59,785 bases of DNA from a virus (IMGVR_UViG_3300006169_000032:1-59785), one strand, 5' to 3'. Positions 1 through 59,785 are shown, counted from the stretch's first letter. Notes: a model not told the origin generated them from the letters alone. Program-made: numbers and translations.

Positions 1-567
1 CAGTACGGCTCAGCCTACACGAAGGAAGTGGACTCTTTTGTCAAGGGACACAAGATTCTCTACGTGTCCCCTGCGGAGAAGGACATTAACGTCGGGACCT
101 GCTTGACAATCCTTCCGAAGACTGTTACCATTGTCTCGCTGAACAAGAACCGCTGGGAGAAGTTTACCCGAAAGTACAAGTCAGCGCGTCACCTGAAGGA
201 TTTCGTTCGTGACCACGTGAAGGCGATGGTCAACTCCGTTGACGAAGAGTCCCTTATTCGTGCAAAGATGGACTACTATGTGAGAACCTACTTCAGTGGT
301 TTCAAGCCTGAGAAGTTTGACGACCCCGACCTACAGAGGCTTGTCAGAGTTTCCAAGGCCCCAATCAAGAAGGACGAGACACTGGAAAATGCACGGCTCC
401 TGGCCCACGCCGCCCAGGTGCCCGTGCCGGTGCGTAACGTCGCGTCCACGGATACGTCAGTGCTCAGTAAGTACCCGTTGCTGAAGGACCGCACGTACTC
501 CGATGAACTAAAGAAGAATCACTGCTATCTGTATGCCAACGCCGTGTTTGCGGAAAGGAATAAGTAA
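1..567 (+). CDS. rIIA-like protein, C-terminal part (truncated by window start)
   Basis: Frame open from base 1; stop overlaps the start of an rIIB-like gene (TAATG), the usual rIIA-rIIB order. Confidence 0.65.
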   Translation, partial: QYGSAYTKEVDSFVKGHKILYVSPAEKDINVGTCLTILPKTVTIVSLNKNRWEKFTRKYKSARHLKDFVRDHVKAMVNSVDEESLIRAKMDYYVRTYFSGFKPEKFDDPDLQRLVRVSKAPIKKDETLENARLLAHAAQVPVPVRNVASTDTSVLSKYPLLKDRTYSDELKKNHCYLYANAVFAERNK

Positions 568-1385
568 TGAGATATACTGTAATCGCTGAGGCAGGCAAGC
601 CAGAGAATCTGGTTGTGTTCCTGCCAGGTGAGGCCAATCCGCTACTCACAGCGGACAGCACCCACTCCAACTACCAGGCCATCAAGGAAAAGGTGGTCAA
701 GGGTGAGACTGACGGCCTGGTCGATTTGTTCGACCCGTCCAAGGCGGTCGCTGCAAAGTTTGAGCGTCTGTCCGACCGTGTGTCCGTCCAGGGAGGAAAG
801 GTCTTCTTCGACGGCGACGAGGTTCACAATGTGCTCACCGAGCAGGTTGTTCGTTTCGTAAAGGAAGGCGAGGACGCCGGTCCTTTGGTGAAGTTCTGGG
901 AGAACCTGGCCCAGAACCCGAACGAGCACAGTCGAGAGCACCTGTACCGCTGGCTGCGAGCCACCAACGGATTCACCATTACCGACGACGGAATGCTGGT
1001 CGGCTACAAGGGCGTCCGTGTGGACAACCAGGATAAGGACAAGTACGTCTCCGTACACGCTGGTCCTGCGGTTGTCGATGGTGTCTCCGTCAACGGAAAT
1101 GTTCCGAACATGCCAGGGACGGTCGTGGAAATGGCTCGTAGCAAGGTCCAGCACGCCCCTGGAATTGGCTGCTCTACCGGCCTTCACGTCGGGACGTGGG
1201 ACTATGCCAGGTCATTTGGCCAGGTCACGCTAGAGGTTCGTGTTCATCCTCGTGACGTGGTGAGCGTCCCCACTGACTGTTCAGACAGGAAGATGCGCGT
1301 GTGCCGCTACAAGGTTGTCAAGGTTACGAATGCACCTTACAACTCAGCGGTGGTTCCGGCTGAGGATTACGCAGCCGTCGTGTGA
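567..1385 (+). CDS. rIIB: rIIB-like protein
   Basis: Motifs FWENLAQNP, ITDDGMLVGYKGV, PGTVVEMAR, CSTGLHVG..DYA, VHPRDVVSVP.D....KMRVCRYKV typical of T4 rIIB family. Confidence 0.9.
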   Translation: MRYTVIAEAGKPENLVVFLPGEANPLLTADSTHSNYQAIKEKVVKGETDGLVDLFDPSKAVAAKFERLSDRVSVQGGKVFFDGDEVHNVLTEQVVRFVKEGEDAGPLVKFWENLAQNPNEHSREHLYRWLRATNGFTITDDGMLVGYKGVRVDNQDKDKYVSVHAGPAVVDGVSVNGNVPNMPGTVVEMARSKVQHAPGIGCSTGLHVGTWDYARSFGQVTLEVRVHPRDVVSVPTDCSDRKMRVCRYKVVKVTNAPYNSAVVPAEDYAAVV

Positions 1386-1392
1386 GAGGGTG

Positions 1393-1435
1393 ACGGGGAG
1401 GGGGTCTTGACGGCTCCCTCCCTGTCCTGTATACT
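1393..1435 (+). promoter_or_regulatory. Hairpin overlapping sigma70-type promoter
   Basis: TTGACG 1407-1412, 17 bp, TATACT 1430-1435; -35 lies in the loop of a GC-rich inverted repeat after rIIB. Confidence 0.7.
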
Positions 1436-1441
1436 GGACCC

Positions 1442-19834: not shown

Positions 19835-20083
19835 ATGGGCTGGCAAGAGAATCTTGAAGACATAAGAATAAACGTAGAAGAAACCAAGGAAACTACCGCC
19901 CAAATGACCGACGCTGAATTGGTGCGAGGCGGGGCGGTCGTGCTAGAGGAATTGATATCTCTACAAGAAGAATACAACTACATTCTTGCAGAGTGGAAGG
20001 TGTGGTGGGCCGAAGCCGCCAGGCGCAATCTGCTCAGTGATATTTTGGATAAGAGAGCCGAAGGGCGGGCCGGTAATGGCTGA
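19835..20083 (+). CDS. Hypothetical protein
   Basis: Preceded by repeat RBS. Confidence 0.6.
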   Translation: MGWQENLEDIRINVEETKETTAQMTDAELVRGGAVVLEELISLQEEYNYILAEWKVWWAEAARRNLLSDILDKRAEGRAGNG

Positions 20084-20296
20084 GGCAATATTCCCGGTCT
20101 TCATGGCCGCAATCGTAATACTGGCGGTAAGATGAGCCCCAGCATAACCTGTCCAGAGTGCGGAATGACCTCTTGTCATCCCGTTGATATAGCAGAGGGG
20201 TATTGTGGTAACTGTCATGACTGGACCTCGCCACCTATTTTCATTGGGCCGGGGCCGAATGCGGCTCAGGTGCACGAGCAAGAGGACGATGAGTAA

Positions 20297-20518
20297 ATGT
20301 CATATCCAACAGCCTGTGACGGATGCCAGGCCGGTAATCACAGTGAACACATTGAGTGGCCAGACCCACTGCCTCAACAGGCAACGACTAATTTTGTGTG
20401 CGGCGGCGGTTTTTGTGCCTGTCAAGGACAGTGTGAAATTTTGGGCGGTATCGACAAGAGTGGCGACATATTTGCTCAACTAAAATCCGCTCGTAACTTT
20501 GGAGACAAGAATGAGTAA
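20297..20518 (+). CDS. Cys/His-rich small protein, paralogue of 17294..17497
   Basis: CDGC..GNHSEH...GG.FCACQGQCE. Confidence 0.65.
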   Translation: MSYPTACDGCQAGNHSEHIEWPDPLPQQATTNFVCGGGFCACQGQCEILGGIDKSGDIFAQLKSARNFGDKNE

Positions 20519-20780
20519 TCTTGTTCCTCCCGCCCAAATCGAGCAAATTGTAGGTCGTCAGCGTCACGCCACCGCCCATTATGGACGAGCGGTATCAAGT
20601 GAACGGGTAGTTTATATTCTACATTCTATTCAATGTCTTTATTGGAACGATGATTTGAGAGACTGTCCATTTTCTGTGGCCCTTGACCGAGGAATAGAAG
20701 TAGATAAATGGGTAGAGGACGAGCCGGTACTTCTTTGTGTTATCAATGGCCGACTTCTACCGGACTTTGGAGACAAGTAA
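20511..20780 (+). CDS. Hypothetical protein
   Basis: Preceded by repeat RBS. Confidence 0.6.
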   Translation: MSNLVPPAQIEQIVGRQRHATAHYGRAVSSERVVYILHSIQCLYWNDDLRDCPFSVALDRGIEVDKWVEDEPVLLCVINGRLLPDFGDK

Positions 20781-21103
20781 TGAGAACCTGGCACAAGACA
20801 CACGTTCCAGAGTCCCCCGACGAGGACAATCATACGTGGTGCCATGCTTGCGGTTTCCTGCTGTTGAACAACGGCCAGCCTACCAGGGGGTTCAAGGCAT
20901 ACAGCCCTTGTGTCCCTGTGCCTGATTCGTTGAGAGAGGGCAACCTAGCATATGACGCCATTCAGGAGGCTTTTCGCCGGGGTGTGGAGGCTATGGTAGA
21001 AGACATTGAGCAGCGGTTGCTGGACAATGACTTGCTAACAGCACGACAGGAACTTGAAAGCCTGCGCAGCCTTGGAAAACAGTTTATTGAGGGGGCCTGG
21101 TAA
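20780..21103 (+). CDS. Hypothetical protein
   Basis: TAATG overlap, repeat RBS. Confidence 0.6.
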   Translation: MRTWHKTHVPESPDEDNHTWCHACGFLLLNNGQPTRGFKAYSPCVPVPDSLREGNLAYDAIQEAFRRGVEAMVEDIEQRLLDNDLLTARQELESLRSLGKQFIEGAW

Positions 21104-36886: not shown

Positions 36887-36913
36887 CAAAGGCCCCCGAA
36901 AGGGGGCTTTTGT
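36887..36913. terminator. Intrinsic terminator (possibly bidirectional)
   Basis: GC hairpin with GAAA loop and T tract between convergent genes. Confidence 0.7.
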
Positions 36914-37037
36914 CACGTATGGGGGCAAATATGGGCGCACTACTCAAAACGGACATTTGTTACATTTCGGACGTGTCATACATCAATACTCGCTACTTAC
37001 ATTTGTCATTCAAAATAAGTTACTTCTCGGTAACTTG

Positions 37038-38907: not shown

Positions 38908-39143
38908 TGCAAGTCTTCCTTTGTCTCATCCCACTTCTGCTCGTTGCGAATGTCATACCAGAGGTTTCCTAGAATCCAAACCGATGAGAATGCGGCTAGA
39001 ATGGCAACGGCGGTCAGATAGTGCGAGCCGGTACCAATGAGGACACAAAGTCCGAACACAACGGCCATAGCAAGCACAATGCTGCCGACTGCTATTGTAG
39101 CCTTCTTCTCGGGGCTCCAGTTCTTTTCGTCAAGCCACTTCAT
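38889..39143 (-). CDS. Two-TM membrane protein
   Basis: GGAGGTG RBS; hydrophobic segments. Confidence 0.65.
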   Translation of the reverse strand: MKWLDEKNWSPEKKATIAVGSIVLAMAVVFGLCVLIGTGSHYLTAVAILAAFSSVWILGNLWYDIRNEQKWDETKEDLQWKERM

Positions 39144-39147
39144 AAAA

Positions 39148-39501
39148 TCACCTCCGATACCTCCAAGAGAAGTATAGCACATCCAACAACGGAAAGCCAG
39201 AGGCGAGCCCAGAAAATAGGTGCCAGCGGAAGTGGCCCCATTTTCCTTTGGGGATTCTTACATACATCGGCCCGGCCCAATCCTTGCTCCTAAGGTGGGT
39301 CGTGTCGGTATCGGTGGATTCCTCGATGGAATATCTTATGGGGAACGACCAGTCTCCCGGGTCGATTTTCCCGGTCCCTCCATTGCGGGTCCGGTAGTTT
39401 ATGGGGGGCTCCTGAATAGAGAAGTATACTGCTCTTGCTCCCCTCGGTCTTACTTTTTGGTCTCCCGGGACAAGCCACCCCTCAAAGCCAAACGTGTTCA
39501 T
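39148..39501 (-). CDS. Hypothetical protein
   Basis: TAATG overlap with upstream ORF. Confidence 0.45.
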   Translation of the reverse strand: MNTFGFEGWLVPGDQKVRPRGARAVYFSIQEPPINYRTRNGGTGKIDPGDWSFPIRYSIEESTDTDTTHLRSKDWAGPMYVRIPKGKWGHFRWHLFSGLASGFPLLDVLYFSWRYRR

Positions 39502-39752
39502 TAGGAGTAGCACCCCGCTTCGCTACCGCGAAAAGACGAACGACGAAGGGGACGGACTGCGTAGACATTCCACCATCCGTTCTTTTGCTTTGACTTCAGC
39601 ACCATGGCCTTGCCATTCACGAAGAAATATTTGTAGGCGGGCGCATCCATGAGGCGAATTGCGGTTTCGAAACTACCGCAGGAATAGGCGAGATAGTGTG
39701 TCTCGTGACTAGGGACGTTCAAAGGGGTTGTCTTTCTTTCCGGTCTGCTCAT
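39501..39752 (-). CDS. Hypothetical protein
   Basis: ORF in operon. Confidence 0.45.
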   Translation of the reverse strand: MSRPERKTTPLNVPSHETHYLAYSCGSFETAIRLMDAPAYKYFFVNGKAMVLKSKQKNGWWNVYAVRPLRRSSFRGSEAGCYS

Positions 39753-39839
39753 GCGCCTTGTGGTAGTGAACGTAAAGGCGCAGTCCAATATAGGTAATCA
39801 CTACGACGGCCAGCACACAGCCGATAGCAAAAGCCATGA

Positions 39840-40406
39840 TTACCTCCTAATGACAATAGTATTGTCCTTAAAGAGTTGTCCCGACGCCGCTGCGTTGGGA
39901 TGGTTTTCCAGGAACTTGCTGAGGTCAACATCACTCCACGAGGCTTCCGCCCCCGAGTGACCCACGATTGCGGTCTGACCTACAATAACAAGGGATGCAA
40001 TGACGGCAAGGACACAGACGAACGAAAGAATCATCGCCTGGGGTTCGTTGTCTCTCCAAACTCCACCGTGCTTATTAACATTCCAATGCCATTTTCTGTC
40101 CATTCCGACCATCAAAGTAACAATAATGGCAAATGGAATGAGCAGAACGAACAAAGCGGTGCCTCCTGCTGCGTGAGGGGTGGCACCGAGGCCGGGGTAG
40201 GCTGTGAGTAGGTTCCCACTCTCAACAGCAACCCAGGCAGACAGCACAGACAGCCAACTCACAATAACGAGAAGCAGGCCGTACTTGTGTCTCCATTGGG
40301 GACGAATTGCAAGGGCAATAACACCAACGGCTGTTGCAATAATGAACATGACCGTTGCGTGTACGATAAGGGGATGCAGTGGCAACCCGAAAAATTCAGC
40401 GAACAT
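39840..40406 (-). CDS. DUF2231-like membrane protein
   Basis: GLPLHPLIVHA, SG, H..GG, VGHSGA motifs, four TMs. Confidence 0.75.
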   Translation of the reverse strand: MFAEFFGLPLHPLIVHATVMFIIATAVGVIALAIRPQWRHKYGLLLVIVSWLSVLSAWVAVESGNLLTAYPGLGATPHAAGGTALFVLLIPFAIIVTLMVGMDRKWHWNVNKHGGVWRDNEPQAMILSFVCVLAVIASLVIVGQTAIVGHSGAEASWSDVDLSKFLENHPNAAASGQLFKDNTIVIRR

Positions 40407-40602
40407 ATTTCTCCATCGTATTAAATTTTGCCCCCGAGCCTCGTGTGAGAGTCGAACTCACTTCTCATGCGTACCGAGCATGTGTAATAACCAGTATACT
40501 AACGAGGCAGTTTGGTATTCCATGCCTTGTGGAAATAGTGAACGAGGGTCGCTATTCCTCCGAGTATCAGAAGAACAACAACAATCCATACGAGCCAGTC
40601 CA

Positions 40603-41079
40603 CTATTTCTTTTTTCTAGTCTTTCTTGGCTTGGGCCGGTATTCCTGTGGGCTCTCCCACTTCACATACAGAGTAAGCCATAGGGTGAATTCGAACGTTG
40701 CTTTTCTTCGCTTGCGTACCTTTATCAAGGTTCCACTGAGGAAATCAACTGCTACCGGCTCCTGGCCACGCTTCTTGCTTCCGTTGAAGGCTCTCAGAAG
40801 TGGGTCGGTAGTACCGGTGTCACCATTCTCTATAACATCAGCAAGGTCATACCTCGCCTGCTCAAACAGCAACTTCCATACGGTGTCATCGTCCCCTGAC
40901 AGAACCAGACCTTCCTCTATTTCGAAGTCCAGTCTAAGACGAGCCACAGACTCGTTTGGGTCCAGGGCACCGATGTAGTATCGGTGTCTTTCCCCTGAGT
41001 CCTTGATGTACGTCTGTCCCTCTGGGGTCTCTTTTAGGTTGTTCCTAAACTCTTCTAGTGCATTGTCTAATAGTTCCAT
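40603..41079 (-). CDS. Hypothetical protein
   Basis: 158-aa ORF with basic tail. Confidence 0.65.
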   Translation of the reverse strand: MELLDNALEEFRNNLKETPEGQTYIKDSGERHRYYIGALDPNESVARLRLDFEIEEGLVLSGDDDTVWKLLFEQARYDLADVIENGDTGTTDPLLRAFNGSKKRGQEPVAVDFLSGTLIKVRKRRKATFEFTLWLTLYVKWESPQEYRPKPRKTRKKK

Positions 41080-41528
41080 AGCGAGCCAGATAAGAGAATC
41101 GAACTCTTCTTTCTTCTTTACGAGAGAAGTGTAATATCCACTATACTAATCTGGCGTGGAGGCGGGGGGCTGACTTAAACAACCCACAGGCACTAAATCA
41201 GAGTGCCATGCTATCGTTACATCACCCGCCACGGTACCTCCATGGTACCATACCGGGCGGTAGGTGTCAAGGTGAGTTGAACCGTCATCTACTTTATTCT
41301 TAGTAAGTAGCATAGTCCCTGGTATATCTAGGTATATATATAGATACCCCGGAAACTCCTGTAGTTTAGGGTACCGGACTTTGCCTTAGATGTCAAGTTG
41401 ACGAATATCGGAAAACTTTACCTAGGGGCTGGCGTTAGGAATCCAGGTCTGCTATCATGGAGGAACAACCAGCGAAAAAATCATGGTAAATCAGGCTACC
41501 AAAGGGTAGTCCAGGGAGGTTATTTTCT

Positions 41529-43445
41529 TTGTCGGAATATCTGGCGAATGACTATTCATATTTCATTCACACTAGCAAGTATGCACGCTGGCGCGACGAC
41601 CTGGGACGCAGGGAAACGTGGGAAGAAACAGTTGCGCGATACATAGATTTTGTGACCGATTCCGTCAGAGAGCGTTACGGGGCAGACCTGTCCGAGTATA
41701 GGCTGTCCGATGCCATCCTGTCAACCAAGGCGATGCCGTCAATGAGAGGGCTCATGACGGCTGGACCGGCCCTGAAAAGGGACTCGACCTGCATTTACAA
41801 CTGCTCATATCTTCCGGTTGACTCTCTTCGTTCATTCGATGAGACGATGTATATTCTCATGTGTGGCACGGGGGTCGGGTACTCTGTTGAGAACAAGTAT
41901 GTTTCCCAACTTCCGACTCTACCGGCCAGTCTGGAAGACACAGACCACGTTATTGTTGTAGATGACTCCAAGGCAGGATGGGCTGCCGCCTACCGGCAAC
42001 TTCTCCACATGCTTTGGGAAGGCGTAATTCCTACCTGGGATATGTCCCAGGTGCGTCCAGCGGGCGCGAGGCTGAAGACTTTTGGCGGGAGAGCATCAGG
42101 CCCAGAGCCACTAGACGCTCTTTTTCATTTTACGGTAGATATTGTCAGGAATGCGGTAGGCCGCAAACTCCGTCCTATTGAGGCACACGACCTCATGTGT
42201 AAGGTGGCGGACATTGTTGTGGTGGGAGGCGTTCGTAGGTCAGCGATGATTTGTCTGTCTGACCTGAATGACTCAGAAATGGCGGCAGCAAAGGCCGGTA
42301 ACTGGTGGGAGACCCACCCACACCGTCGTCTTGCAAATATCAGCGCCGTGTACGAGTCAAAGCCGAGCGTAGATGTTTTCATGGAGGAATGGAAGGCGCT
42401 CTACGACTCAAAGTCTGGGGAGAGAGGAATCTTCAACCGTGAGGCTGCACGAAAAGTGGCCGGTAGCACAGGACGAAGAGACTCATCACCAGAATTCGGT
42501 ACCAACCCATGCAGTGAAATCATCCTGAGACCTTTCGGGTTCTGCAATCTTACTGAAGTCGTGGTGCGACCAGAGGACAGGCTCGCAGACTTACTCAAAA
42601 AGGTGGAGGATGCGACCGTTCTGGGCACAATCCAGAGCACATTCACCGACTTCTCTTATTTGCGGCCAATCTGGAAGGAAAACGCCGAAGATGAGAGACT
42701 TCTGGGAGTTTCCTTAACGGGACAGTTAGGCCACCCGGTTCTGCAAACCAACAGTTTCCAGGCTAAGGCATGGCTGCTGGCCCTGAAGAAGCACGCTATC
42801 AGGGTCAACGATAAGATTGCCGGTATGCTGGGAATCAACCCGGCAGCAGCAATTACCTGTGTTAAGCCGAGCGGGACGGTATCTCAGTTGGTAAACTGCT
42901 CCAGCGGAATGCACACCTGGCACGCAGAGTTCTACGCCAGGACCGTTCGTGCGGATAACAAGGACCCGCTGACCATTTTCATGAAGGATGCGGGTGTCCC
43001 TTGGGAGCCGGATTTGATGGACCCCAAGAATACGACTGTGTTCACATTCCCGGTTGCTGCGCCAGAAGGGGCGGTAACCAGAAATGACCTGTCGGCGGTA
43101 GAGCACCTGGATATCTGGCTACAGTATCAGAACTACTGGACAGAACACAAGCCAAGCGTGACAATCTCGGTGAGAGAGGATGAATGGCTGGACGTGCAAG
43201 CCTGGGTATACAGAAACTTCGATGATATCTCGGGAATCTCGTTCCTGCCTCATTCCGACCACACCTACAAACAAGCACCATATCAGGAACTCACAGAGGA
43301 AGAGTACAACGACCTCTGTGCGCAGATGCCTGAAAGAATTGACTGGTCACTGCTGTCACTGTACGAGACAGAGGACGCAACCACCGGCTCGCAGGAACTT
43401 GCGTGCGTAGCGGGCCAGTGTGACCTAGTTGACATTACCAAATAG
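41529..43445 (+). CDS. nrdJ: Class II (adenosylcobalamin-dependent) ribonucleotide reductase
   Basis: RRETWEETV.RY, YNCSY, VVVGGVRRSA, TNPCSEI, CNLTE, TCVKPSGT, C-terminal CVAGQC. Confidence 0.93.
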   Translation: MSEYLANDYSYFIHTSKYARWRDDLGRRETWEETVARYIDFVTDSVRERYGADLSEYRLSDAILSTKAMPSMRGLMTAGPALKRDSTCIYNCSYLPVDSLRSFDETMYILMCGTGVGYSVENKYVSQLPTLPASLEDTDHVIVVDDSKAGWAAAYRQLLHMLWEGVIPTWDMSQVRPAGARLKTFGGRASGPEPLDALFHFTVDIVRNAVGRKLRPIEAHDLMCKVADIVVVGGVRRSAMICLSDLNDSEMAAAKAGNWWETHPHRRLANISAVYESKPSVDVFMEEWKALYDSKSGERGIFNREAARKVAGSTGRRDSSPEFGTNPCSEIILRPFGFCNLTEVVVRPEDRLADLLKKVEDATVLGTIQSTFTDFSYLRPIWKENAEDERLLGVSLTGQLGHPVLQTNSFQAKAWLLALKKHAIRVNDKIAGMLGINPAAAITCVKPSGTVSQLVNCSSGMHTWHAEFYARTVRADNKDPLTIFMKDAGVPWEPDLMDPKNTTVFTFPVAAPEGAVTRNDLSAVEHLDIWLQYQNYWTEHKPSVTISVREDEWLDVQAWVYRNFDDISGISFLPHSDHTYKQAPYQELTEEEYNDLCAQMPERIDWSLLSLYETEDATTGSQELACVAGQCDLVDITK

Positions 43446-52374: not shown

Positions 52375-52411
52375 GCCACGCAGGGGCTACCGGCCCCTGC
52401 GTGGCCTTTTT
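52375..52411 (+). terminator. Intrinsic terminator
   Basis: GCCACGCAGGGGC/GCCCCTGCGTGGC 13-bp stem followed by T tract. Confidence 0.75.
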
Positions 52412-52696
52412 ATGGCAACATACAGAATTTCTTACAGCAGCAAGTATGCGAATACAGGAACCAGGGACACCGCAATCACGGCGCTCACCAGCCTGTTGAC
52501 GTCAATTCCGCATCAGAATGTGGCGGGACGATTCTCGCCTGGAATAAACTCCTTCACTACCGGCTTGACCCTGAGTATTACTGTAGACGAGGCTCAGGTG
52601 AATGTTGGCCAGTTGTTCAAAGACATTCAGGACCTAATCGGCGTGACAAACAGAAATTCAGGAGCCTTTGCGTCCTGCTATATGGAGCCTAAGTAA
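52412..52696 (+). CDS. Hypothetical protein
   Basis: TAATG overlap with large gene. Confidence 0.6.
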   Translation: MATYRISYSSKYANTGTRDTAITALTSLLTSIPHQNVAGRFSPGINSFTTGLTLSITVDEAQVNVGQLFKDIQDLIGVTNRNSGAFASCYMEPK

Positions 52697-55600
52697 TGGC
52701 AGTAGCATATGGCAGCGCAAGTTTGGCGGTATACAGCCAGACCAACCCGGTAGTAACATTACCCACCGGAAACAGCGGAGACGGCCTTCTATTGGTCGTT
52801 ATGACCAAGCCCGACAACACGCCAGCCGACCCGATTTCAGGCTGGACACTGCTGGGCGCGTTTACCTCTGTACGAGATGGACTTTCCTCTGGTTCCACTA
52901 CCGCCGACTCCGGTTCCGTCCGTGTAGGTGTTTTCTTTAGAGAGGCAGACGGAACAGAGCCAACAAGCATCACCGTCAACGTCCCGTCCAACAACGTTAC
53001 TGCCGCTCAGATATTCAGATATTCAAAGGGCGGCGGTGAAGCCTGGGACGTGCAAATTACAGGTGGTGGAGACACAAGCGCCGGTACAGCATTCAGCATC
53101 CTCACTGGAACCGTCCCCGCCTCATGGATTGCCGCTGGCGACCATTTGCTTGTTCCTACCGTATTAGCAACAGATACTGCCCCTACGTGGGGCACGCCCA
53201 CGCTTACCGCTCAGGGTGGCGGTTCAATCACACTAGGCACCGCGACCGTCTTGCAGACCTATACCACCACCACACAAGGCGACTTGGGTGGTAGGACAAT
53301 TAGATATGCGCCTTCCGCTTCCACACAGGCAGCCGGTACTCTAACATTTGCCTCAACACTATCAGGTACCACCACTAACGCCTTTGGTGCAACCGCAATT
53401 GTTAGGCTTCGCGCAGCCGCCCCGACAACAATTCAGAAGTCCGCATCCGACACATCAAGCGTTTCAATTTCAGATACATCATCTAAGTTTGTATTCCAGA
53501 ACCTACGAACATCACACGTGGGAATGTGGCACTCCGCTCACCGTGGAGCCGGTGAGTCGCCGGTAGGTCCATGGCCTGAAGAGACCATGGAAGCATATGC
53601 AAAGTGTTTTGCTGACCCAAACATCGACGTACTCGAAATGGACGTTAGGCTGTCTTCCGATGGAATTCTGTACCTTAGCCACGACGCCAACATTGACAGG
53701 CTGTATACAACCAACGCAACAGTCGAAGCAACATCATCGACCACCTTGAACTCTCAGTCATATAAGGCATCCTTGCTTGTTGGAACTGAGTTTGAGGGCC
53801 AGACCTTGCGCCTGGCAAAACTGACAGATATTCTGGCTTTGTACCACGACAAGATTCTGCTGTCCATTGAGCCTAAGACACAGGCAGCCGGTGATGCTCT
53901 ACCAGCCGTGCTCGACCAGTACATGATTTACAAGCAGAATGTGTCCATTCCGTCATTCGATGAGGCTTACCAGGCTGCATCGGTAGCAGCCGGATATCCA
54001 ATTGCGCTGCGTCCCGCCAACGGTACCGCCCCCTCAGTGATTACCGCCAAGGGTGGAAATCAGGTAAACGTCAACATCAACAACGCTGATGCCGCATGGC
54101 AGGCCCAACTTGCAGCAGGCGGGGTTGAGATGTGGGTATGGACCATTGACAGCCAGTATGACCACGACCGGGCGGTAGCGATGAATGCGAATGGTATCAT
54201 CGGTAACGACCCACCATATATCCAAAGAGCATATAGACAAACAGGCGACCCATATGCCGACCAGCATGTGTGGCACGGATATATTTCCGGTGGTGCACTG
54301 AACGGCGGTACCAATGGTAGGTTCGTCTCCCCTGACCAATGGGGAATCGACAACAACGACGGCGTTACCTCCAACGTAGAGTCCGGTGTGCTACAGGGAT
54401 GGATTAACCCGATTAACAACAACCCTACCGCCCAGTATTACACCATTGACTTTGAGGCAAACATGGTTGACAACCTGGCCAACGCCTCCAATTTCACCGT
54501 CGCTATCGCCAACCGAGACGACAACGGATATGCCGGTGGTTCCAGTGGCACCCCCGCATTCCGTGGTTACAACTGTCTTTTCAGAAAGAGCGGTGTCGCT
54601 CAGGTACGTACATTCCCCGGCGATGGAACCGACACCACCGCCGCCACAATCACCGGAACTGCCCTGACAGTTAACACGTGGAACACCTACCAAATCATCG
54701 TAACGCCTAATGATATTACAGCGAAGAACCTGACCCTTGGTACAACTGTAACAAGCACCGAGGTCGGCTTCGGACGAGGTGGCTATATCTGGTTTGGTGC
54801 AGCCGGTTCCAACACTCTCTTCAGGAACATAACCGTAACCGACAACACCCCAGCGGGATTCGTTGACAAAAATGGCTCTGACACCAGCAGTATCTCCGTT
54901 GCAATGAGCGCGGTAGCGGGTGAGTTGGGTGCCGCTACCCCTATCAGCGCTTCTGATACTGGAGGAATGGCCCTCTCCGGTGTTGCTGCAATCCAGGCGT
55001 CATTCACCAAGTCTGATACAAGCAGTGTTGTTGTAAGTGACAGTGCCAGCATCCTGAAGACAATACCGGCCAGCGACACGTCAAGTGTGGCTGTTACTGA
55101 TGTTTCGGCAATTCAGAAGAACTTCACGGCCTCTGACACAAGTTCCGTTGCTGCTGCCGATACCAGCACAATTGCAGTAACTCTGACCAGAGCCGACACG
55201 AGCAGTGTTGCGGCTGCCGACACGTCTGCTTTGCAAAAGGGACTATCGGCAAGCGATACCAGTTCGGTATCAGTTACCGAATCCGTCGCCATCAACGTAT
55301 TCCTGACACGAGACGACCCTACCAGCCTGAGCGTGTCAGACGCATCGGCAACCCTCAGCACCAACCCTCGCTCTGACACAAGTTCTGTGGCAATTGCTGA
55401 TTCTGCTGTTGTTGCGGGAACGGTCAACAGGGCCGACACAGCCGCATTAACGATTACCGACACTGCTGTCATTGACTCTAGTGGCTTGGGCTCAGACCAG
55501 GCATCGGTAACAGCAACAGATGTTGCAACAGTCGCCGGTAGCACCACTAGAACCGATACCGGGGCGGTAGCCATTGGTGAAACCGCCTCTATTGCAGTAT

Positions 55601-57096
55601 CAACAACAGCAACAGACACCCTTCCAGTCTCAATCACAGAGGCTAGACAGGTTGCTGTCACCACAACCGCCAACGACACAACCAGCCTGGCTATTGCTGA
55701 TACCAGTGTAATCGACAAGTTTATCCTCGCCAGTGATACCGGCGCTGTCTCTGTGGCTGACTCTTCAAGCATAACCATAACCTCCCAGGACAAGTCCGCA
55801 AGCGACACGTCCAGCATTGCCGTCTCTGAGTCGGTCGCCAACGCTGTCAGCCTATCAGCAAATGACTCAGCAAACATCGGTGTAGCAGATATTACGCTGA
55901 TTCACAAGACTATCCTCGCAGCCGATGTATCCAGCATCTCCATTGACGATGATGGCAGCAGAGCCGCAACCGGAACCAACCCTGAGGTCAGCGACACACT
56001 CGAAATTTCATCGACTGAGACCGCACAAGTCTCTGCTTCGTTCCTGACCTCTGACACCGGGGCAGTAGCAACAACAGATGTTTCCTCTACCAGTATAGCC
56101 ACAACCAAGACAGATACCGGCTCGATTTCCGTATCAGACACCTCACATGTCCTAAAGAACCCACAGGCGTCCGACACAGGCAGCGTCTCGGCTACAGATG
56201 CCTCCAGCGTCGCTGTGACACGCCTAGAAAAATTCAGCAGCGATTCCGGCTCCCTGGTAGCCACCGACGCATCGCAATTTTCTACGGTGCCTCTGAGCGC
56301 CTCTGACGCCGCCACTTTGCAGATTGCAGACGTTTCAGGGGTCAGCACAGATACCTCATTCCTCACCCCTGCTGCATCAGACACCCTGACCACAATCTCA
56401 ACGGACAGCAGCAGCATTGTCATCAGCGGACTTGTTCTTAAGTCTGCAAGTGACAGCGGGGCTCTCACCATATCAGATGTGTCCACAAGGGATATCACCG
56501 CAATCAAGGCTGCCAGTGACAGCGGTTCGGTTGCCGCCACAGACGCCTCCGGTGGAATCAACGTGGGCGGTACGGTCACAAAGAGTACCACCGACACAGA
56601 TGATATCTCTATTACTGATACATCATCAATAGCAGTAACCAGAATTGTCACTGGAACAGACACAGGCGCATTCAGCATTGATGATGATGGTCTCCTAGAG
56701 CCGGTCGGTACCGCCCCGATTGGTTCAAGCGACTCTGGCTCGGTTTCCGTAAGCGACACCGCCAGCGTCACCATCACAACCCTGAAGACAGCAAGCGACA
56801 CCTCAGGTGTTGTCATAACAGATGTTGGCTCAAAGGCAGCATTCAACGAGATTCTGAAGAATGCTGGAGACACCGCCGCCGTCTCGATATCTGAGACAGC
56901 CACCCGCTTCTTCGCCCAGGCCGGGGGCAGAATATCATTTGACTTTAGGTGGTCGTATGCTATAATGTTGAATAGAGGCAGAGCCATGCTGAGCAGAGTA
57001 GAAGGAACCTCCGCTCAGGACAAAACAGTGGAAGGAAAGACTGACGGCGGCACCCAGATAGAGGGCGGTAGCCAGCCAGGAATTCAAATTGACTGA
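52696..57096 (+). CDS. Large virion protein with glycerophosphodiester phosphodiesterase domain and Ser/Thr/Asp repeat stalk
   Basis: AHRG, EMDVRLSSDG..LSHD, IEPK, WTID, GIIGN.P; many xSDTxSxxxSD repeats. Confidence 0.85.
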   Translation: MAVAYGSASLAVYSQTNPVVTLPTGNSGDGLLLVVMTKPDNTPADPISGWTLLGAFTSVRDGLSSGSTTADSGSVRVGVFFREADGTEPTSITVNVPSNNVTAAQIFRYSKGGGEAWDVQITGGGDTSAGTAFSILTGTVPASWIAAGDHLLVPTVLATDTAPTWGTPTLTAQGGGSITLGTATVLQTYTTTTQGDLGGRTIRYAPSASTQAAGTLTFASTLSGTTTNAFGATAIVRLRAAAPTTIQKSASDTSSVSISDTSSKFVFQNLRTSHVGMWHSAHRGAGESPVGPWPEETMEAYAKCFADPNIDVLEMDVRLSSDGILYLSHDANIDRLYTTNATVEATSSTTLNSQSYKASLLVGTEFEGQTLRLAKLTDILALYHDKILLSIEPKTQAAGDALPAVLDQYMIYKQNVSIPSFDEAYQAASVAAGYPIALRPANGTAPSVITAKGGNQVNVNINNADAAWQAQLAAGGVEMWVWTIDSQYDHDRAVAMNANGIIGNDPPYIQRAYRQTGDPYADQHVWHGYISGGALNGGTNGRFVSPDQWGIDNNDGVTSNVESGVLQGWINPINNNPTAQYYTIDFEANMVDNLANASNFTVAIANRDDNGYAGGSSGTPAFRGYNCLFRKSGVAQVRTFPGDGTDTTAATITGTALTVNTWNTYQIIVTPNDITAKNLTLGTTVTSTEVGFGRGGYIWFGAAGSNTLFRNITVTDNTPAGFVDKNGSDTSSISVAMSAVAGELGAATPISASDTGGMALSGVAAIQASFTKSDTSSVVVSDSASILKTIPASDTSSVAVTDVSAIQKNFTASDTSSVAAADTSTIAVTLTRADTSSVAAADTSALQKGLSASDTSSVSVTESVAINVFLTRDDPTSLSVSDASATLSTNPRSDTSSVAIADSAVVAGTVNRADTAALTITDTAVIDSSGLGSDQASVTATDVATVAGSTTRTDTGAVAIGETASIAVSTTATDTLPVSITEARQVAVTTTANDTTSLAIADTSVIDKFILASDTGAVSVADSSSITITSQDKSASDTSSIAVSESVANAVSLSANDSANIGVADITLIHKTILAADVSSISIDDDGSRAATGTNPEVSDTLEISSTETAQVSASFLTSDTGAVATTDVSSTSIATTKTDTGSISVSDTSHVLKNPQASDTGSVSATDASSVAVTRLEKFSSDSGSLVATDASQFSTVPLSASDAATLQIADVSGVSTDTSFLTPAASDTLTTISTDSSSIVISGLVLKSASDSGALTISDVSTRDITAIKAASDSGSVAATDASGGINVGGTVTKSTTDTDDISITDTSSIAVTRIVTGTDTGAFSIDDDGLLEPVGTAPIGSSDSGSVSVSDTASVTITTLKTASDTSGVVITDVGSKAAFNEILKNAGDTAAVSISETATRFFAQAGGRISFDFRWSYAIMLNRGRAMLSRVEGTSAQDKTVEGKTDGGTQIEGGSQPGIQID

Positions 57097-57997
57097 GATA
57101 TACAAGAACACCACCCAGAACGCCAGCCTGGTAATCACAGGCGAGACAGCAGACACACCCCCAACAGCGACATTGGTCAAAGGGGAAGATGAGACTGTTT
57201 TGACGGTCAGCGAGCCGGAAACTGTTGGAAGCATAGAAGTCTGGAAAGCCTACATCGGCCTGGCCCACACCCAGGGCGGCACATTCGATGTTGTCTGGGA
57301 ATTCACCATTGATGGAAACCCGGTAGAGAAGGTAGACTCATTCGAAGTAGTCACCCCCTACGTCAGCCTCTCAGCGGCAAAGGAAGCCCTGGCCCTGGCA
57401 ACAGTGTCCGACGAGGATATCATGAGAATTGAGCGCAGGGTCCGCAAAATCATCAACCGCTACTGTGGCCAGTCCTTCGACCTGGAGACCGGCACGAAAA
57501 TCGTCCGAGGCCAAGGCTCAGAGAATATCCGCCTCCCAAAAAGACTGAACAAGGTGAACTCCATTACTCAGCACGTGACGGGCGCTGCGTTAGAGGGTTA
57601 CGAGATTCGCCACAACGGGCTGGTACTCCGTAGGTCATACCCATCATACGCATCAGAGAATGTCGTCTGGATAACCAACCCAATCTTCAACCCATTCTAC
57701 GATGTGAAGTCAGACACATTTTGGGGCGGTAGTGTCCCCTTCGCCTATGACGTAGAATGGGATATCACTGGAGAATGGGGATATCACAGCATCCCATCAG
57801 AGGTACAAGAGGCAGCCCTGATTCTCATGGAACAGTACCTCTGCTCTGACGACCTGTACCGCCAGCGTTACGTGAACACCATGGCGTCCGCTGACTTCAG
57901 GTACAGCACGCACGACAAGGCGTGGCAGGGAACCGGCAATGCCGTTGCCGACTACCTGCTCAGAGATTACGTCTGGGATGCCATCTCAGTTATATGA
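57089..57997 (+). CDS. Head-to-tail adaptor
   Basis: VVTPY, I..YCGQ.F, G.WGY..IP.EV.EAA.IL, GTGN..AD.LL..Y. Confidence 0.8.
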   Translation: MTEIYKNTTQNASLVITGETADTPPTATLVKGEDETVLTVSEPETVGSIEVWKAYIGLAHTQGGTFDVVWEFTIDGNPVEKVDSFEVVTPYVSLSAAKEALALATVSDEDIMRIERRVRKIINRYCGQSFDLETGTKIVRGQGSENIRLPKRLNKVNSITQHVTGAALEGYEIRHNGLVLRRSYPSYASENVVWITNPIFNPFYDVKSDTFWGGSVPFAYDVEWDITGEWGYHSIPSEVQEAALILMEQYLCSDDLYRQRYVNTMASADFRYSTHDKAWQGTGNAVADYLLRDYVWDAISVI

Positions 57998-58500
57998 AGT
58001 GTCTTCGAAGCGCCCGCTACAACATGAGTGCCGAGATTGTCCATACAGAAGGTCCGTCAAACCCAACCCCGTCTGAGGTCAGCACAGGCCATTGGGAATG
58101 GCAGCAGGACGAATACGGCGAACTCCACTACGTCTGGGTAGAAGACGAAACCCCCGAAACCCCAGAAGAGGGGGACGTGACAGTGGAGAACTGGACATTT
58201 CCGTGCATGGCCAGAGGATATGTCGGAACAGGGCTCCAAGGGGGCGGTACAGGTGAGGAATTCGGCAACCGCTACGAAGCAATAGACACCATAAGAATAT
58301 GGTTCAGCCCAGAACAGAGAATATCCAAGAACGACCAGATAACCAACATACGAGGACCCCACGGAATAATCTGGAAGGAAGAGGAACTCGGCGGGCTACC
58401 CACAAAGTTCGACGTGATGGGAGTCACCCCTCTGATTGACCACCTGGGAAGGCATGTAGAAAGTTATGCGCTATGCGAGAGGTCTGAGATACAGCAATGA
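57994..58500 (+). CDS. Head-to-tail stopper-like protein
   Basis: ATGA overlap; position after adaptor. Confidence 0.65.
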   Translation: MKCLRSARYNMSAEIVHTEGPSNPTPSEVSTGHWEWQQDEYGELHYVWVEDETPETPEEGDVTVENWTFPCMARGYVGTGLQGGGTGEEFGNRYEAIDTIRIWFSPEQRISKNDQITNIRGPHGIIWKEEELGGLPTKFDVMGVTPLIDHLGRHVESYALCERSEIQQ

Positions 58501-59291
58501 GGTCATACGCGAATTTTGAGATGGACCTGGGACAGGTCGGTGCCCTGGAAGGAACCATCGACGGTCTACAGCAGGTAACACGAACCGGAGTTTACATCAA
58601 CGCGGTTGTGGAAGACGCTCACGCCCAACTATCCAGAGTATTCACGGCAAACACCCACGCCATAGCGCGAGCCCAGCCGAAACTTCTACACCACGTTTAT
58701 GAGGCAGGACACGTAGGAATTCCCGGTATGCAGTTGTGGCGCAACATCCTGAAAGGCAGAGGTGCCCACAGGAGAGCATCATTTGAGTTCCGCCCCGCCG
58801 TACGTCCAAACGAACTACCCCAGGCTTCGTCCTCACCAAGCGGAAAGACGCTCAACAAGAAATATGTGTTCCGCATGAAGCCATGGATTATGGAGTATGG
58901 AATCCCTGTGACCGTCAGGGCAAAAGAGCCTGGTGGCGTACTGGCAATGTACCTTGGTGACAGCGTAGCAGGCGAATCCCAGTTTGCCTTCGCACCGGAG
59001 GCGAAGGTTGAGAACCCGGGCGGTAAGGTCCAGGGAAACTTCACCGCACAGTTCATCGGCTGGTGGGAACAGGCAGCACCAACCATCTACGACCAGCAGG
59101 TTCGTTTCAGATATGAACGTGACGTGCAGAGGATTGTCGATTCCTCAGGACGCAAGGCAAGACGCTCCGTAACCGGAAAATCGGTCGGTATGAAGTCGTG
59201 GAGCCTCGGCTATGACGCCGGTTATGCAATGGCCCACACACAGGCAAGACTGGAAGCGGCCCGGTACAGAGGCGGTGAGTACATAGAATGA
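58497..59291 (+). CDS. Neck/tail-completion-like structural protein
   Basis: LHHVYE..HVG..LW motif; synteny. Confidence 0.6.
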   Translation: MRSYANFEMDLGQVGALEGTIDGLQQVTRTGVYINAVVEDAHAQLSRVFTANTHAIARAQPKLLHHVYEAGHVGIPGMQLWRNILKGRGAHRRASFEFRPAVRPNELPQASSSPSGKTLNKKYVFRMKPWIMEYGIPVTVRAKEPGGVLAMYLGDSVAGESQFAFAPEAKVENPGGKVQGNFTAQFIGWWEQAAPTIYDQQVRFRYERDVQRIVDSSGRKARRSVTGKSVGMKSWSLGYDAGYAMAHTQARLEAARYRGGEYIE

Positions 59292-59785
59292 AGATGCCAC
59301 CCATCTATGCCCTTAACGCATATCTCTTCGAACTGCTGGTAAGAAACGAGTCATGGACGAAAATCAGCGTGGGCGGTACAGCAGCGATTACCCCGATTAT
59401 CCCGTCCAGCGACTCACCAATTCTGGCATCACAGAGCAAGGCGTACATCGTATTCGGATTCGCAAAAGAACCGGACAGAGAGTTCTATGCTCATAAGTCC
59501 GAGCAGGCGGCGTACACCATCTACTCTACCTCCCCGAACGAGGTAGCCAGAATCGTCTCCATGCTATCCGAAACCCTGGGACGCCTTGACGAGTCGGCAG
59601 CAGACGTGAACCGCTGGCTCAGAACCAGTGCCACCTGGAACGGGCTGAAGTTCACCACAATCTCAGTCCAGTCAGCCCAGAGCGCCGGGCCGGAAAAGAC
59701 CCAGGAGGGCAAAGTCGATGGCCTTGTCACCCTCCGCTATTTCTACACAATGACAGAAGTCTACAACATTCCAGGTGCCCTTGTC
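59288..59785 (+). CDS. Tail terminator-like protein (truncated by window end)
   Basis: ATGA overlap, frame open to end; PIIP, DESA.DVN.W; synteny. Confidence 0.6.
   Translation, partial: MKMPPIYALNAYLFELLVRNESWTKISVGGTAAITPIIPSSDSPILASQSKAYIVFGFAKEPDREFYAHKSEQAAYTIYSTSPNEVARIVSMLSETLGRLDESAADVNRWLRTSATWNGLKFTTISVQSAQSAGPEKTQEGKVDGLVTLRYFYTMTEVYNIPGALV

Follow-up and report, generated by a model that had tools for sequence, protein, structure and literature searches.

Does a seven-letter DNA word that recurs throughout a viral genome fragment act as a signal, and if so, what might read it? The window analysed here, a stretch of 59,785 nucleotides (59.8 kb) of viral DNA, holds 175 copies of GSCGGTA (S, G or C), 105 on the plus strand and 70 on the minus strand. 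We provide evidence that the word is a selected DNA-level signal inherited within one phage clade, and weigh a tentative role in replication against the alternatives.

Abundance of the word against null models

Dinucleotide-preserving shuffles yield 10.45 ± 3.00 copies of GSCGGTA per window, with a maximum of 18, and 175 copies were reached in none of 100. The reversed word, which served as a control, occurs 13 times. These counts bear out the window-wide over-representation described in an earlier note. The heptamer named there, G(C/G)CGGTA, is enriched, but the constant element is rather a core, CGGTA, with G or C at each of the two positions before it: the window has 214 copies of SSCGGTA where 33.7 are expected. 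The full motif is SS-CGGTA-(G/T), dispersed on both strands over positions 1-59785 at about one site per 280-340 bp. A further base, G, was said often to follow the heptamer, which is true of 45% of the copies; G precedes it in 61%.

The codon-preserving shuffle that had been set beforehand as the refuting test leaves the excess in place. Genes hold 130 copies against 23.75 ± 4.40 (maximum 36) in 300 synonymous shuffles, and codon-order shuffling predicts 15.3 ± 3.6. The codons that spell the word had been called unusual, which is not so, GGT being the commonest glycine codon. On either strand, the word is spelled out in 48-54% of the codon contexts that allow it, compared with 4-15% expected. 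The non-coding DNA of the window carries 45 copies against 3.3 ± 1.9 expected, with densities of 2.9-4.7 per kb in short intergenic spacers.

The excess is not a by-product of restriction-site avoidance. GATC, AGCT and about 27 hexamer palindromes are totally avoided, and when 35 avoided words were kept forbidden in the shuffle, 12 runs gave 68.8 copies (fixed non-coding copies included) against the 175 observed. The one-step neighbours of the word show no systematic depletion, and several are themselves enriched 2-3 times.

Sites within the window

All 16 coordinates that had been listed for positions 20069-22462 are exact matches, 14 of them forward and 2 reverse. This plus-strand stretch of 2.4 kb is the densest of the window, made up of small early-type ORFs and not of a single long gene. 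The word is also present, as had been claimed, in the ribonucleotide reductase (nrdJ), LamG, portal and tail-region genes. The class II ribonucleotide reductase gene (41529-43445, plus strand) carries seven copies, five sense and two antisense, and exemplifies how the word is embedded in a conserved gene.

Two terminator-like hairpins bear the word at their apices, at 24513 and 52388, and folding energies agree with the earlier description of both. In the minus-strand hairpin at 24502-24527, with an 11-bp stem, the word at 24513-24519 forms the GGUA loop and closing pairs (-30.9 kcal/mol, z -2.4). The plus-strand hairpin at 52375-52405 has a 14-bp stem and a minus-strand copy of the word (52388-52394) as its apex; its energy of -31.6 kcal/mol (z -5.6) was equalled in none of 200 shuffles.

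Of the promoter spacers said to contain the word, the one at 24943 is borne out: the word at 24943-24949 lies within the spacer of a minus-strand promoter-like site, TTGACA-18-TATACT (24928-24957). The copies at 35276 and 35537 directly follow TTGACT, and the promoter scan called no promoter at either. Two other promoter-like sites, at 33049-33077 and 41242-41270, have the word in their spacers (at 33062 and 41256). All three sites are consensus matches only, as are the 32 promoter-like sites found between 22.5 and 41.5 kb, where 13.4 were expected. A fusion of ribosome-binding site and start codon, also proposed earlier, does exist as four copies of GSCGGTAATG but is minor, since the word lies no more than 15 nt from the start in only 3 of the 114 genes called.

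Occurrence in related phages

The window belongs to an uncultured phage related to the Streptomyces cluster-BE phages of ~130 kb and represents 46% of a genome. Its cultured relatives show no excess of the word. All 14 motif-rich entries are uncultured genomes that fall in a single clade of ~115-130 kb actinophages (SH-like support 99), with observed-to-expected ratios of 2.9-9.3; the sister groups of this clade, Coruscant included, are not enriched. Two near-complete members, G006 and G007, contain 259 and 216 copies against 21 and 22 of the control, and G013 contains 51 against 4.

Few sites are common to orthologues (4 of 59, 6 of 48 and 27 of 162), and these shared sites are 25- to 60-fold above chance. 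Between orthologues, therefore, sites turn over while density is kept. The 3' core is invariant, and the G/C-rich 5' extension is degenerate, with a preference that drifts between lineages.

Five actinobacterial plasmids from Rhodococcus, Mycobacterium and Streptomyces, used as proxies for the phage host, show no enrichment in any case; the counts of the word and its reversed control are 290/398, 85/135, 108/189, 35/45 and 111/164. Among the genomes compared, the excess thus appears intrinsic to one phage lineage.

Our data support the earlier proposal that the word is a selected DNA-level signal, because every usable reading frame, both strands and non-coding DNA alike show the excess, because it survives codon- and avoidance-preserving null models, and because a deep clade has passed on the trait even as its individual sites come and go.

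Orientation and spacing

Copies are scattered over the window in a Poisson-like manner (variance/mean 1.01 per 2 kb), and its three gene arms have similar densities of 2.65, 3.05 and 3.14 per kb. Orientation counts are 105:70 in the window, 184:75 in G006 and 144:72 in G007. Orientation mostly tracks gene strand (2.4-2.6:1). A minor effect of absolute strand is also present (Fisher odds ratio 1.8, p = 0.035). Independently of gene strand, no orientation switch that would mark an origin was seen. In short spacers the orientations stand at 39:24 (p = 0.08).

Antisense copies are enriched too, 3.5- to 4-fold, with 43 observed against 10.3 expected. In the window, 48% of usable antisense contexts are occupied compared with 50-54% of sense contexts, which indicates a strand-symmetric drive; in G006 and G007 the corresponding values are 25-30% and 40-58%. 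As a point against a primase, the symmetric drive in the window suits a binder of double-stranded DNA equally well.

On the main strand there is one site per 461-495 nt. Main-strand sites are more evenly spaced than random in G006 and G007 (coefficients of variation 0.82 and 0.83 against 0.99 ± 0.06 for random placement; about 0.1% of 2000 random sets are as low). Spacing in the window is indistinguishable from random (0.91, with 18% of random sets as low), and in none of the three genomes are the largest gaps between sites shortened.

Gene content of the clade

Pfam scans covered 112 proteins of the window, 103 of G006 and 91 of G007, or 306 in all; proteins under 75 aa, boundary-crossing genes (5 in G006, 4 in G007) and structural-module genes (15 in G006, 24 in G007) were left out. 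G006 and G007 encode their own replicative helicase, DnaB (DnaB_C), a DnaG-type primase (DNAG_N/Toprim with a CHC2 zinc finger) and the Pol III alpha polymerase, and these replication genes are absent from the window. G006 further encodes RecA and a PD-(D/E)XK nuclease, and G007 encodes RecA.

Relatives all have an orthologous primase (39-42% identity), even those poor in the motif. In the primases of G006 and G007 a 4-residue insertion comes right after the zinc finger, and there are two more insertions, all absent from four motif-poor relatives. The primase of motif-poor relatives, and the indels to be expected at such identity anyway, also count against a primase as reader.

A dNMP kinase, a 5'-nucleotidase and a MazG-like pyrophosphatase are common to G006 and G007 and absent from three motif-poor genomes, and glycosyltransferases and a sugar epimerase lie near them. 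No window gene occurs in both G006 and G007 while missing from all three motif-poor genomes. Lsr2-type proteins are encoded within the clade itself, and one of them is a small window protein with two Lsr2-type 'RGR' DNA-binding modules (24535-24888, minus strand). Among evident DNA binders, it alone has a G006 homologue that matches the window and none of the three motif-poor genomes. Lsr2 modules bind AT-rich minor grooves, and we therefore judge this protein an unlikely reader of the word.

A possible reader of the word

The excess is strong and on both strands, and we therefore infer that some protein reads the word. That this reader would be a primase, or any replisome protein, is a further step. 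Selection would keep SS-CGGTA-(G/T) at high density across one actinophage clade of ~115-130 kb genomes, and the word would be read by DNA machinery that the phage lineage itself supplies and would not act as a signal across the host genome. We tentatively suggest that the word may be a recognition site for the replisome that the clade encodes, and more precisely for its DnaG-type primase, a reading that we regard as possible and as the likeliest of those weighed here.

The primase would act with the phage DnaB helicase and Pol III alpha polymerase, and primers of the sequence 5'-ACCGSS would start at 5'-..CGGT|A-3' on a single-stranded template, leaving the 3' A uncopied as the 'cryptic' base. 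According to PMC12839067, DnaG-type primases recognize a 3'-proximal trinucleotide whose central base is a pyrimidine, so that the primer begins with a purine, and the 3' base that comes next stays uncopied; the end of the word, G-T-A, seems to fit this rule at the sequence level. Main-strand density and spacing, even in G006 and G007 and random-like in the window, are compatible with Okazaki-fragment priming. A primase with so long a site would find too few by chance, and the genome would for that reason have been enriched to a workable density. For known DnaG-type primases, however, a trinucleotide suffices, and T7 uses only ~12 of its 177 sites (PMC12839067), so one site per 300-500 nt looks excessive. 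The random-like spacing in the window, the unshortened largest gaps, the missing orientation switch and the lack of replication genes in the window weigh against the proposal as well, and the reader may instead be a host protein.

A broader form of this proposal is somewhat more doubtful. The clade might have adopted an unusually long word of 7 nt for its replication or recombination machinery and rewritten half of the available codon contexts to supply it, which would make the word a private 'self' code, absent from host DNA and related phages and read by the clade's own replisome through its primase. If true, the virus would be keeping its replication machinery for its own DNA in a manner not described before.

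Alternative explanations

We think it rather unlikely that the word provides double-stranded sites for a sequence-specific phage or host protein that coats, organizes or marks the genome. Such a protein could be of the nucleoid or packaging kind raised earlier, or could serve as self-marker or to counter host Lsr2-type silencing of the comparatively AT-rich phage DNA. The strand-symmetric drive and uniform scatter in the window, the orientation counts in short spacers, the presence of the word wherever sequence is free, as in promoter spacers and hairpin loops, and the clade's Lsr2-type proteins would all suit such a protein, but the search for a candidate gene shared by the window, G006 and G007 and missing from the three motif-poor genomes came up empty, and Lsr2-type modules suit AT-rich minor grooves, not a G/C-rich word. 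Moreover, the spacing that is even on one strand only, together with antisense contexts being less often occupied in G006 and G007, speaks for a component tied to strand. A target of DNA modification by something other than a recognizable methyltransferase, with sites accruing since each mark protects the DNA, seems improbable to us. The earlier note had raised a modification mark, for which gene content gives no support in the form of a DNA methyltransferase or transglycosylase family, none being present in the 306 scanned proteins; the nucleotide-metabolism genes of G006 and G007, with glycosyltransferases and an epimerase close by, speak for it. The total avoidance of restriction palindromes suggests that restriction enzymes probably read this DNA as ordinary, and a mark alone gives no reason for the sites to be enriched.

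The Chi-like site offered earlier is disfavoured, and we give little credence to the idea that the word halts degradation by a host (AdnAB/RecBCD-type) or phage helicase-nuclease, starts recombination and so protects linear phage DNA. A short, asymmetric, G-rich word above codon-null expectation, biased ~2.4:1 towards sense/forward, with a small absolute-strand component and even main-strand spacing, is what such a site might look like. However, in Chi-rich lambdoid phages, such as LLS and MD8, which lack a Rec module, polarity reaches 20:3 and 32:0 with clusters at one end (PMC12315714), a strong single-orientation polarity that the ratios found here do not show. Uniform scatter, strand-symmetric occupancy of the window, the RecA and nuclease genes and the unenriched Rhodococcus, Mycobacterium and Streptomyces replicons weigh against it too. 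Equally improbable, in our judgement, is a functionless mutation or repair bias towards the word, through very-short-patch-type correction or polymerase context bias. Quick turnover, sites wherever sequence is free and inheritance with the lineage's replication and repair genes are in keeping with it; a single donor-to-product conversion is hard to square with neighbours that are not systematically depleted, with two forms (GCC and GGC) and with lineage-specific 5' preferences, the excess of shared sites also speaks against it, and one-strand under-dispersion is not expected from mutation alone. An ops-like element on the non-template strand, read by a NusG/RfaH-type elongation factor that keeps transcription processive, is very improbable. 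In ops, GGCGGTAGCGTG, the segment C3-G8 that forms the RfaH-binding hairpin is identical to the core CGGTA(G) (PMC5995543), and there is a sense-strand excess, but enriched antisense copies throughout genes largely refute it. There are hundreds of copies, not one per operon; G follows the core in under half of the window copies; the pause TG (positions 11-12) is missing, GGCGGTAGNNTG being present twice in each of the window, G006 and G007, and the exact 12-mer once in G006 and in neither of the others; and the 306 scanned proteins include no NusG paralogue or other NGN/KOW protein.

Comparison with known systems

The ops element shares the identical hexamer CGGTAG with our word, which on single-stranded DNA could form the same mini-hairpin, with a C:G closing pair and exposed G and T. 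In operon leaders, ops occurs singly on the sense strand, is followed by a pause TG and depends on an RfaH paralogue (PMC5995543); the word has none of these features. The Chi-rich lambdoid phages carry about one host-specified site per 1.9 kb without Rec genes (PMC12315714). Like theirs, the word here is asymmetric, G-rich, the top k-mer of a phage genome and selected beyond codon expectation; unlike theirs, it has weak polarity and uniform scatter, is 4-6 times denser, occurs together with RecA, and is not enriched in the actinobacterial replicons sampled.

Words scattered across whole genomes at ~1-3 per kb are known from Neisseria and Pasteurellaceae (DNA uptake sequences) and from cyanobacteria (HIP1), where both strands carry them, inside genes and outside. 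They are present in terminator hairpins, and their density is maintained as sites turn over. The word resembles them in being dispersed, orientation-neutral, present in genes and terminator hairpins and preserved in density despite turnover. They are, however, properties of host chromosomes (for uptake sequences, those of naturally competent species) that phages merely share, and HIP1 is palindromic; the word is not palindromic and is the trait of one phage clade, with none of five actinobacterial replicons enriched.

Primase sites of the T7 gene 4 protein are 5'-(G/T)2GTC-3', with primers starting ACC.. and a cryptic 3' base, and number 177 pentamers in about 37 kb, in the lagging-strand region (PMC12839067). 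T7 sites are 5 nt long and near chance frequency (by our arithmetic, ~1 per 256 nt per strand for four pentamers), whereas the word, known from sequence alone, has 7 specified positions and is 6- to 17-fold enriched; the cryptic base here would be A, and in T7 it is C. By analogy, the word read on a single-stranded template would resemble the T7 site in its invariant 3' end, made up of G-T and a base left uncopied, and in a degenerate 5' extension that supplies the primer. In both cases the sites lie on both strands and throughout coding sequence at ~1 per 200-500 nt, and the phage encodes its own zinc-finger DnaG-type primase.

A dispersed word at many times its expected frequency

The heptamer GSCGGTA has 175 matches in the window of 59,785 bases (plus strand 105, minus strand 70), against 10.45 ± 3.00 in dinucleotide-preserving shuffles (n = 100, maximum 18) and 13 copies of the word read backwards. 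The copies that the earlier note had placed in 20069-22462 all proved to be exact matches. Both forms are equally common (GCCGGTA 90, GGCGGTA 85) and head the list of 7-mers in the window, where GGCCGGTA and GGGCGGTA occur 54 times apiece against 2.2 expected. The base before the word is G in 61% of window copies and the base after it is G in 45%. Counts in the window fall to background on changing any base of CGGTA, and position 2 tolerates only C or G. In the window and in G006 and G007, two near-complete uncultured relatives, the invariant part is CGGTA behind two G/C bases; counts of this SSCGGTA form are 214 in the window, 342 in G006 and 368 in G007, where 33.7, 45.7 and 49.8 are expected. 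A -10 promoter element (TANNNT) is ruled out, as T is not enriched four bases after TA.

Copies are scattered along the window, with a variance/mean ratio of 1.01 per 2 kb, a gap coefficient of variation (CV) of 0.91, and similar densities in the three gene arms (2.65, 3.05 and 3.14 per kb). Non-coding copies occupy free sequence: among consensus promoter matches the word lies within the spacer at 24943, 33062 and 41256 and immediately upstream of the -35 hexamer at 33701, 34505 and 35787, and it sits at the apex of strong predicted terminator-like hairpins at 24513 and 52388. Fusion of the word with ribosome-binding site and start codon, reported earlier for several copies, does exist but is rare (four GSCGGTAATG copies, 3 of 114 genes). 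In the minus-strand small-gene block at 22500-41500, matches to sigma-70-like promoters number 32 where 13.4 ± 3.8 are expected, and many of them have a perfect -35 hexamer, TTGACA or TTGACT.

Enrichment is independent of coding and of word avoidance

A simple codon-score caller gave 114 genes covering 78% of the window, and by this annotation 86 copies are sense, 43 antisense, 45 non-coding and 1 at a gene boundary. Sense copies fall 45, 37 and 4 times in the three reading frames, the third, shunned frame being one that calls for CGG-TAx. Synonymous codon shuffling within genes (n = 300) yielded 23.75 ± 4.40 copies (maximum 36) and codon-order shuffling 15.3 ± 3.6, against 130 observed, while non-coding DNA holds 45 copies against 3.3 ± 1.9 expected. 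Loss of the excess under codon-preserving shuffles, the outcome that would have refuted the earlier proposal of a selected DNA-level signal, thus did not occur. Both gene strands are enriched (sense 87 against 13.6, antisense 43 against 10.3), and the codons that spell the word are ordinary ones.

The clearest measure of the word's drive is occupancy, as roughly half of the synonymous opportunities in the window are taken. The word is spelled at 45 of 90 occurrences of [Ala/Gly]-Gly followed by an A-starting codon (9.8 expected from codon usage), at 38 of 70 of (..G)-[Ala/Pro]-Val (2.9 expected) and, antisense, at 29 of 60 of (..T)-Thr-[Gly/Ala] (8.7 expected). Equal sense and antisense occupancy indicates a drive of the same strength on either strand, and the 2:1 sense excess in the window thus follows from the number of available codon contexts. 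Shuffles, reading frames and occupancy together rule out a codon, dipeptide or codon-pair effect for the clade. Distant relatives (loci L048, L056, L018 and L132, and phages Jay2Jay and Anedea) show a 2- to 4-fold excess of GCCGGTA alone, sense only and mostly in frame 0, which may be a codon-context effect of GCCGGC avoidance or a forerunner of the clade-wide enrichment.

GATC, AGCT and about 20 hexamer palindromes, including GCCGGC, are absent from the window. A chain of synonymous swaps barred from forming 35 avoided words gave 68.8 copies, against 66.4 for the free chain (12 runs each, both including about 45 fixed non-coding copies) and 175 observed; these like expectations, far below the observed count, rule out a by-product of restriction-site avoidance. 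In the window, as also in G006 and G007, 27 hexamer palindromes (GCCGGC, GGCGCC, CTGCAG, GGATCC, CTCGAG and others) occur at most once, and the non-palindromic pairs CTCCTC/GAGGAG, CTCAAG/CTTGAG and CCCGGA/TCCGGG at most twice. Among relatives, Jay2Jay has 0 GATC and 617 AGCT, and Coruscant 707 and 614. A frame-shift or recoding signal is also ruled out, the short open reading frames near 20-22.5 kb being normal small genes, each with a start of its own.

The word marks a single phage clade

Judged by its proteins, the window is a relative of the roughly 130 kb Streptomyces cluster-BE siphoviruses of the family Stanwilliamsviridae: against Jay2Jay, NootNoot, Anedea and Coruscant it shows identities of 62-63% for the ribonucleotide reductase and 47-48% for the capsid protease. 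Actinophage-typical genes are present (WhiB, Lsr2-type, DUF732, L5-gp82-like and GP88), and IMG/VR rates the window 46% complete. Cultured relatives carry the word at or near the level of the reversed-word control (Coruscant, 133.7 kb, 31 versus 23; Mandalore 22 versus 23) or in mild excess, mostly as GCCGGTA (Jay2Jay 57 versus 22; Anedea 67 versus 26). Uncultured relatives, collected through their capsid and portal proteins, include G006 (120,830 bases, 94% complete) with 259 copies versus 21 and G007 (114,812 bases, 89% complete) with 216 versus 22, as well as three fragments (G008, G009 and G010) with 15, 32 and 25 copies versus 0-1. Whole-genome observed/expected (O/E) ratios for SSCGGTA are 0.7 in Coruscant, 1.4 in Jay2Jay and 1.9 in the motif-poor genome G001, against 6.3 in the window, 7.5 in G006 and 7.4 in G007.

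A portal tree (FastTree, SH-like support), built on 113 distinct sequences after removal of identical proteins and of loci shorter than 4 kb, places the window in a single clade with support of 99. All 14 members of this clade are motif-rich (O/E 2.9-9.3) and all 14 lack GATC; the word is not enriched in the sister groups, Coruscant among them. Two entries beyond the clade exceed an O/E of 3, namely L132, with sense GCCGGTA only, and L130, with 9 copies. Portal proteins have just 52-57% identity to that of the window, and those of G006 and G007 have 72% to each other. The preferred 5' dinucleotide is GC = GG in the window, GC > GG > CG in G006 and GC > CC > GG > CG in G007. On these sequence comparisons, the word is evidently kept through deep divergence while its 5' preference drifts.

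Beyond the clade, an IMG/VR scan for three copies within a short range returned at least 119 stretches; the matches listed were mostly tandem repeats and chance hits, plus the clade member G013 (51 copies versus 4). The sole candidate carrier among the matches listed, the unrelated phage G011, is not convincing: its 74 copies versus 16 in the control compare with 25.6 under a first-order Markov model, and (GC)n heads its list of words. In the text accessible to a literature search, whole-word matches to the four 7-mers came only from apparently unrelated papers, and the term 'motif' is absent from the accessible parts of the announcement of BE1 (PMC5764925) and of the paper on Coruscant (PMC7650747).

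As host proxies we used five actinobacterial plasmids of 88-745 kb (Rhodococcus opacus, R. jostii, Mycobacterium sp. JS623 and two Streptomyces), in all of which the word is rarer than its reversed control (290/398, 85/135, 108/189, 35/45 and 111/164). Within the reach of these proxies and of the IMG/VR matches listed, the word seems to belong to the phage clade and not to a host chromosome. A scan of genome contigs for the phage family found one contig only, L093 (12.9 kb), in a metagenome-assembled genome labelled uncultured Methylococcus. This contig belongs to a distant branch of the family with 41% GC, and is probably either mis-binned phage sequence or a host hint for that branch.

Sites turn over, with signs of a small strand preference

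Few sites are inherited in place. Window sites recur at the identical codon position in 4 of 59 cases in G006 orthologues and 6 of 48 in G007 orthologues, and G006 and G007 have 27 of 162 in common, against 0.15-0.46 shared sites expected by chance in these comparisons. Ancestral sites persist at conserved protein stretches; most have turned over, yet density is still 6- to 8-fold over expectation.

Sense:antisense counts in the window, G006 and G007 are 67:28, 135:47 and 119:48 for plus-strand genes and 20:15, 13:10 and 9:4 for minus-strand genes. The pooled difference between gene strands (odds ratio 1.8, p = 0.035) points to a small absolute-strand preference beyond the coding effect; in short co-oriented spacers orientation is 39:24 (p = 0.08). 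Occupancy in G006 and G007 is lower antisense (25-30%) than sense (40-58%). On the main strand of these two genomes the sites are placed more regularly than at random, the CVs being 0.82 and 0.83 against 0.99 ± 0.06, values that about 0.1% of 2000 random sets reach; spacing is random-like on their minor strands and in the window. No shortening of the largest gaps was found in the window, G006 or G007.

Gene content and candidate readers

Pfam scans covered 112 window, 103 G006 and 91 G007 proteins, boundary-crossing genes (five in G006, four in G007) being left out, and detected no DNA methyltransferase and no NGN/KOW protein among them. G006 and G007 encode DnaB, a DnaG-type primase, Pol III alpha and RecA, and G006 additionally a PD-(D/E)XK nuclease. 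Shared by G006 and G007 and unmatched in the motif-poor Coruscant, Jay2Jay and G001 are 28 G006 genes, including a dNMP kinase, a 5'-nucleotidase, a MazG-like pyrophosphatase and a small protein with two Lsr2-type RGR modules. No window gene common to G006 and G007 is missing from those three genomes, so that gene-content comparison nominates no reader. The orthologous primase is kept in all relatives; when six primases are aligned, those of the two clade members have in common 4 inserted residues directly after the CHC2 zinc finger, plus two more insertions, and a link of these to word reading is suggestive only.

Small RGR-module proteins without the Lsr2 oligomerisation domain are encoded on the minus strand at 24535-24888 and 25107-25499 of the window and at L228:8702-9049 of G006. 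A 118-residue RGR protein carries two modules in tandem, and such proteins could be anti-silencing decoys. The dNMP kinase and deoxy-pyrimidine 5'-nucleotidase, with the MazG-like enzyme in G006, lie at G006 L231:15957-17148 and L231:8323-8649 and at G007 L237:4146-5877; in other phages this enzyme set goes with canonical-base replacement. An RNA-repair kit (G006 L226:790-4383 and L227:2624-10046; G007 L237:9877-13660 and L238:13743-14477) comprises two RNA ligase families, polynucleotide kinase and phosphatase, a CCA-adding enzyme, RlaP and a cyclic-phosphate REC domain, and its predicted content suggests that it protects against tRNA-cleaving nucleases of the host. A Sir2-family protein, a nicotinamide mononucleotide transporter and an AAA_28 (NadR-like) protein in G007 (L237:9200-9862 and L237:16607-18321) look like an NAD+ salvage or counter-defence module. 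After the head genes, the window encodes on its plus strand (52696-57096) a 1466-residue protein with glycerophosphodiester phosphodiesterase and 3-keto-disaccharide-hydrolase-like domains; Coruscant has connector, tail and tape-measure genes at the corresponding position, and its gene order differs.

Discussion

We conclude that the word is very probably a selected DNA-level signal. Tentatively, we suggest that the replisome of the clade itself reads it, recognition by the primase being the likeliest of the mechanisms considered. That a double-strand binding protein reads the word seems to us rather unlikely; the tandem Lsr2-type protein is an unlikely reader, its modules being AT-hook-like RGR. 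We would give little credence to a modification target, and neither a phage methyltransferase nor a NusG paralogue is available as reader among the scanned window, G006 and G007 proteins. A neutral mutation or repair bias is similarly improbable, and its very-short-patch form is ruled out, the neighbours of the word not being depleted.

A Chi-like signal is also doubtful. Chi-rich lambdoid phages, in the available text of PMC12315714, lack Rec genes and have a site roughly every 1.9 kb, in orientations of 20:3 or 32:0 and grouped towards one end, four features not shared by the phages studied here. The RfaH ops element, in the available text of PMC5995543, is GGCGGTAGCGTG, forms a hairpin closed by C3:G8 with T6 flipped out, and has essential bases G4, G5, A7 and G8; the ops hexamer given there is identical to the core of the phage word in those copies where G follows CGGTA (45% in the window). 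However, enriched antisense copies, copy numbers in the hundreds, the missing downstream TG and the absence of a NusG paralogue among the scanned proteins together exclude membership of the ops class, and we regard an ops-like element as highly improbable.

For primase recognition, the nearest comparison is T7, whose primase sites, 5'-(G/T)2GTC-3', number 177 over some 37 kb and give primers ACCC, ACCA, ACAC or ACAA, while the cryptic 3' base is recognised through the zinc-binding domain (PMC12839067, available text). At the level of sequence, the phage word likewise consists of GGT, one 3' base and a degenerate 5' extension, at a similar final density. However, against the T7 sites as described there, it is longer and needs enrichment to attain a T7-like density. 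If the primase is indeed the reader, we know of no earlier genome enriched for its own priming sites, and the papers listed by a literature search on the subject were unrelated.

These findings raise a testable question, namely which clade protein binds SSCGGTA, with a short candidate list headed by the primase, and they make the word a practical marker for spotting clade fragments in metagenomes. Chi, uptake sequences and HIP1 are rare cases in which the specificity of a protein is written genome-wide, and from each a mechanism was found. The layout of uptake sequences and HIP1 resembles that of the phage word, but these are properties of host chromosomes, whereas the dispersed word described here belongs to a phage clade and not, so far as tested, to its host.
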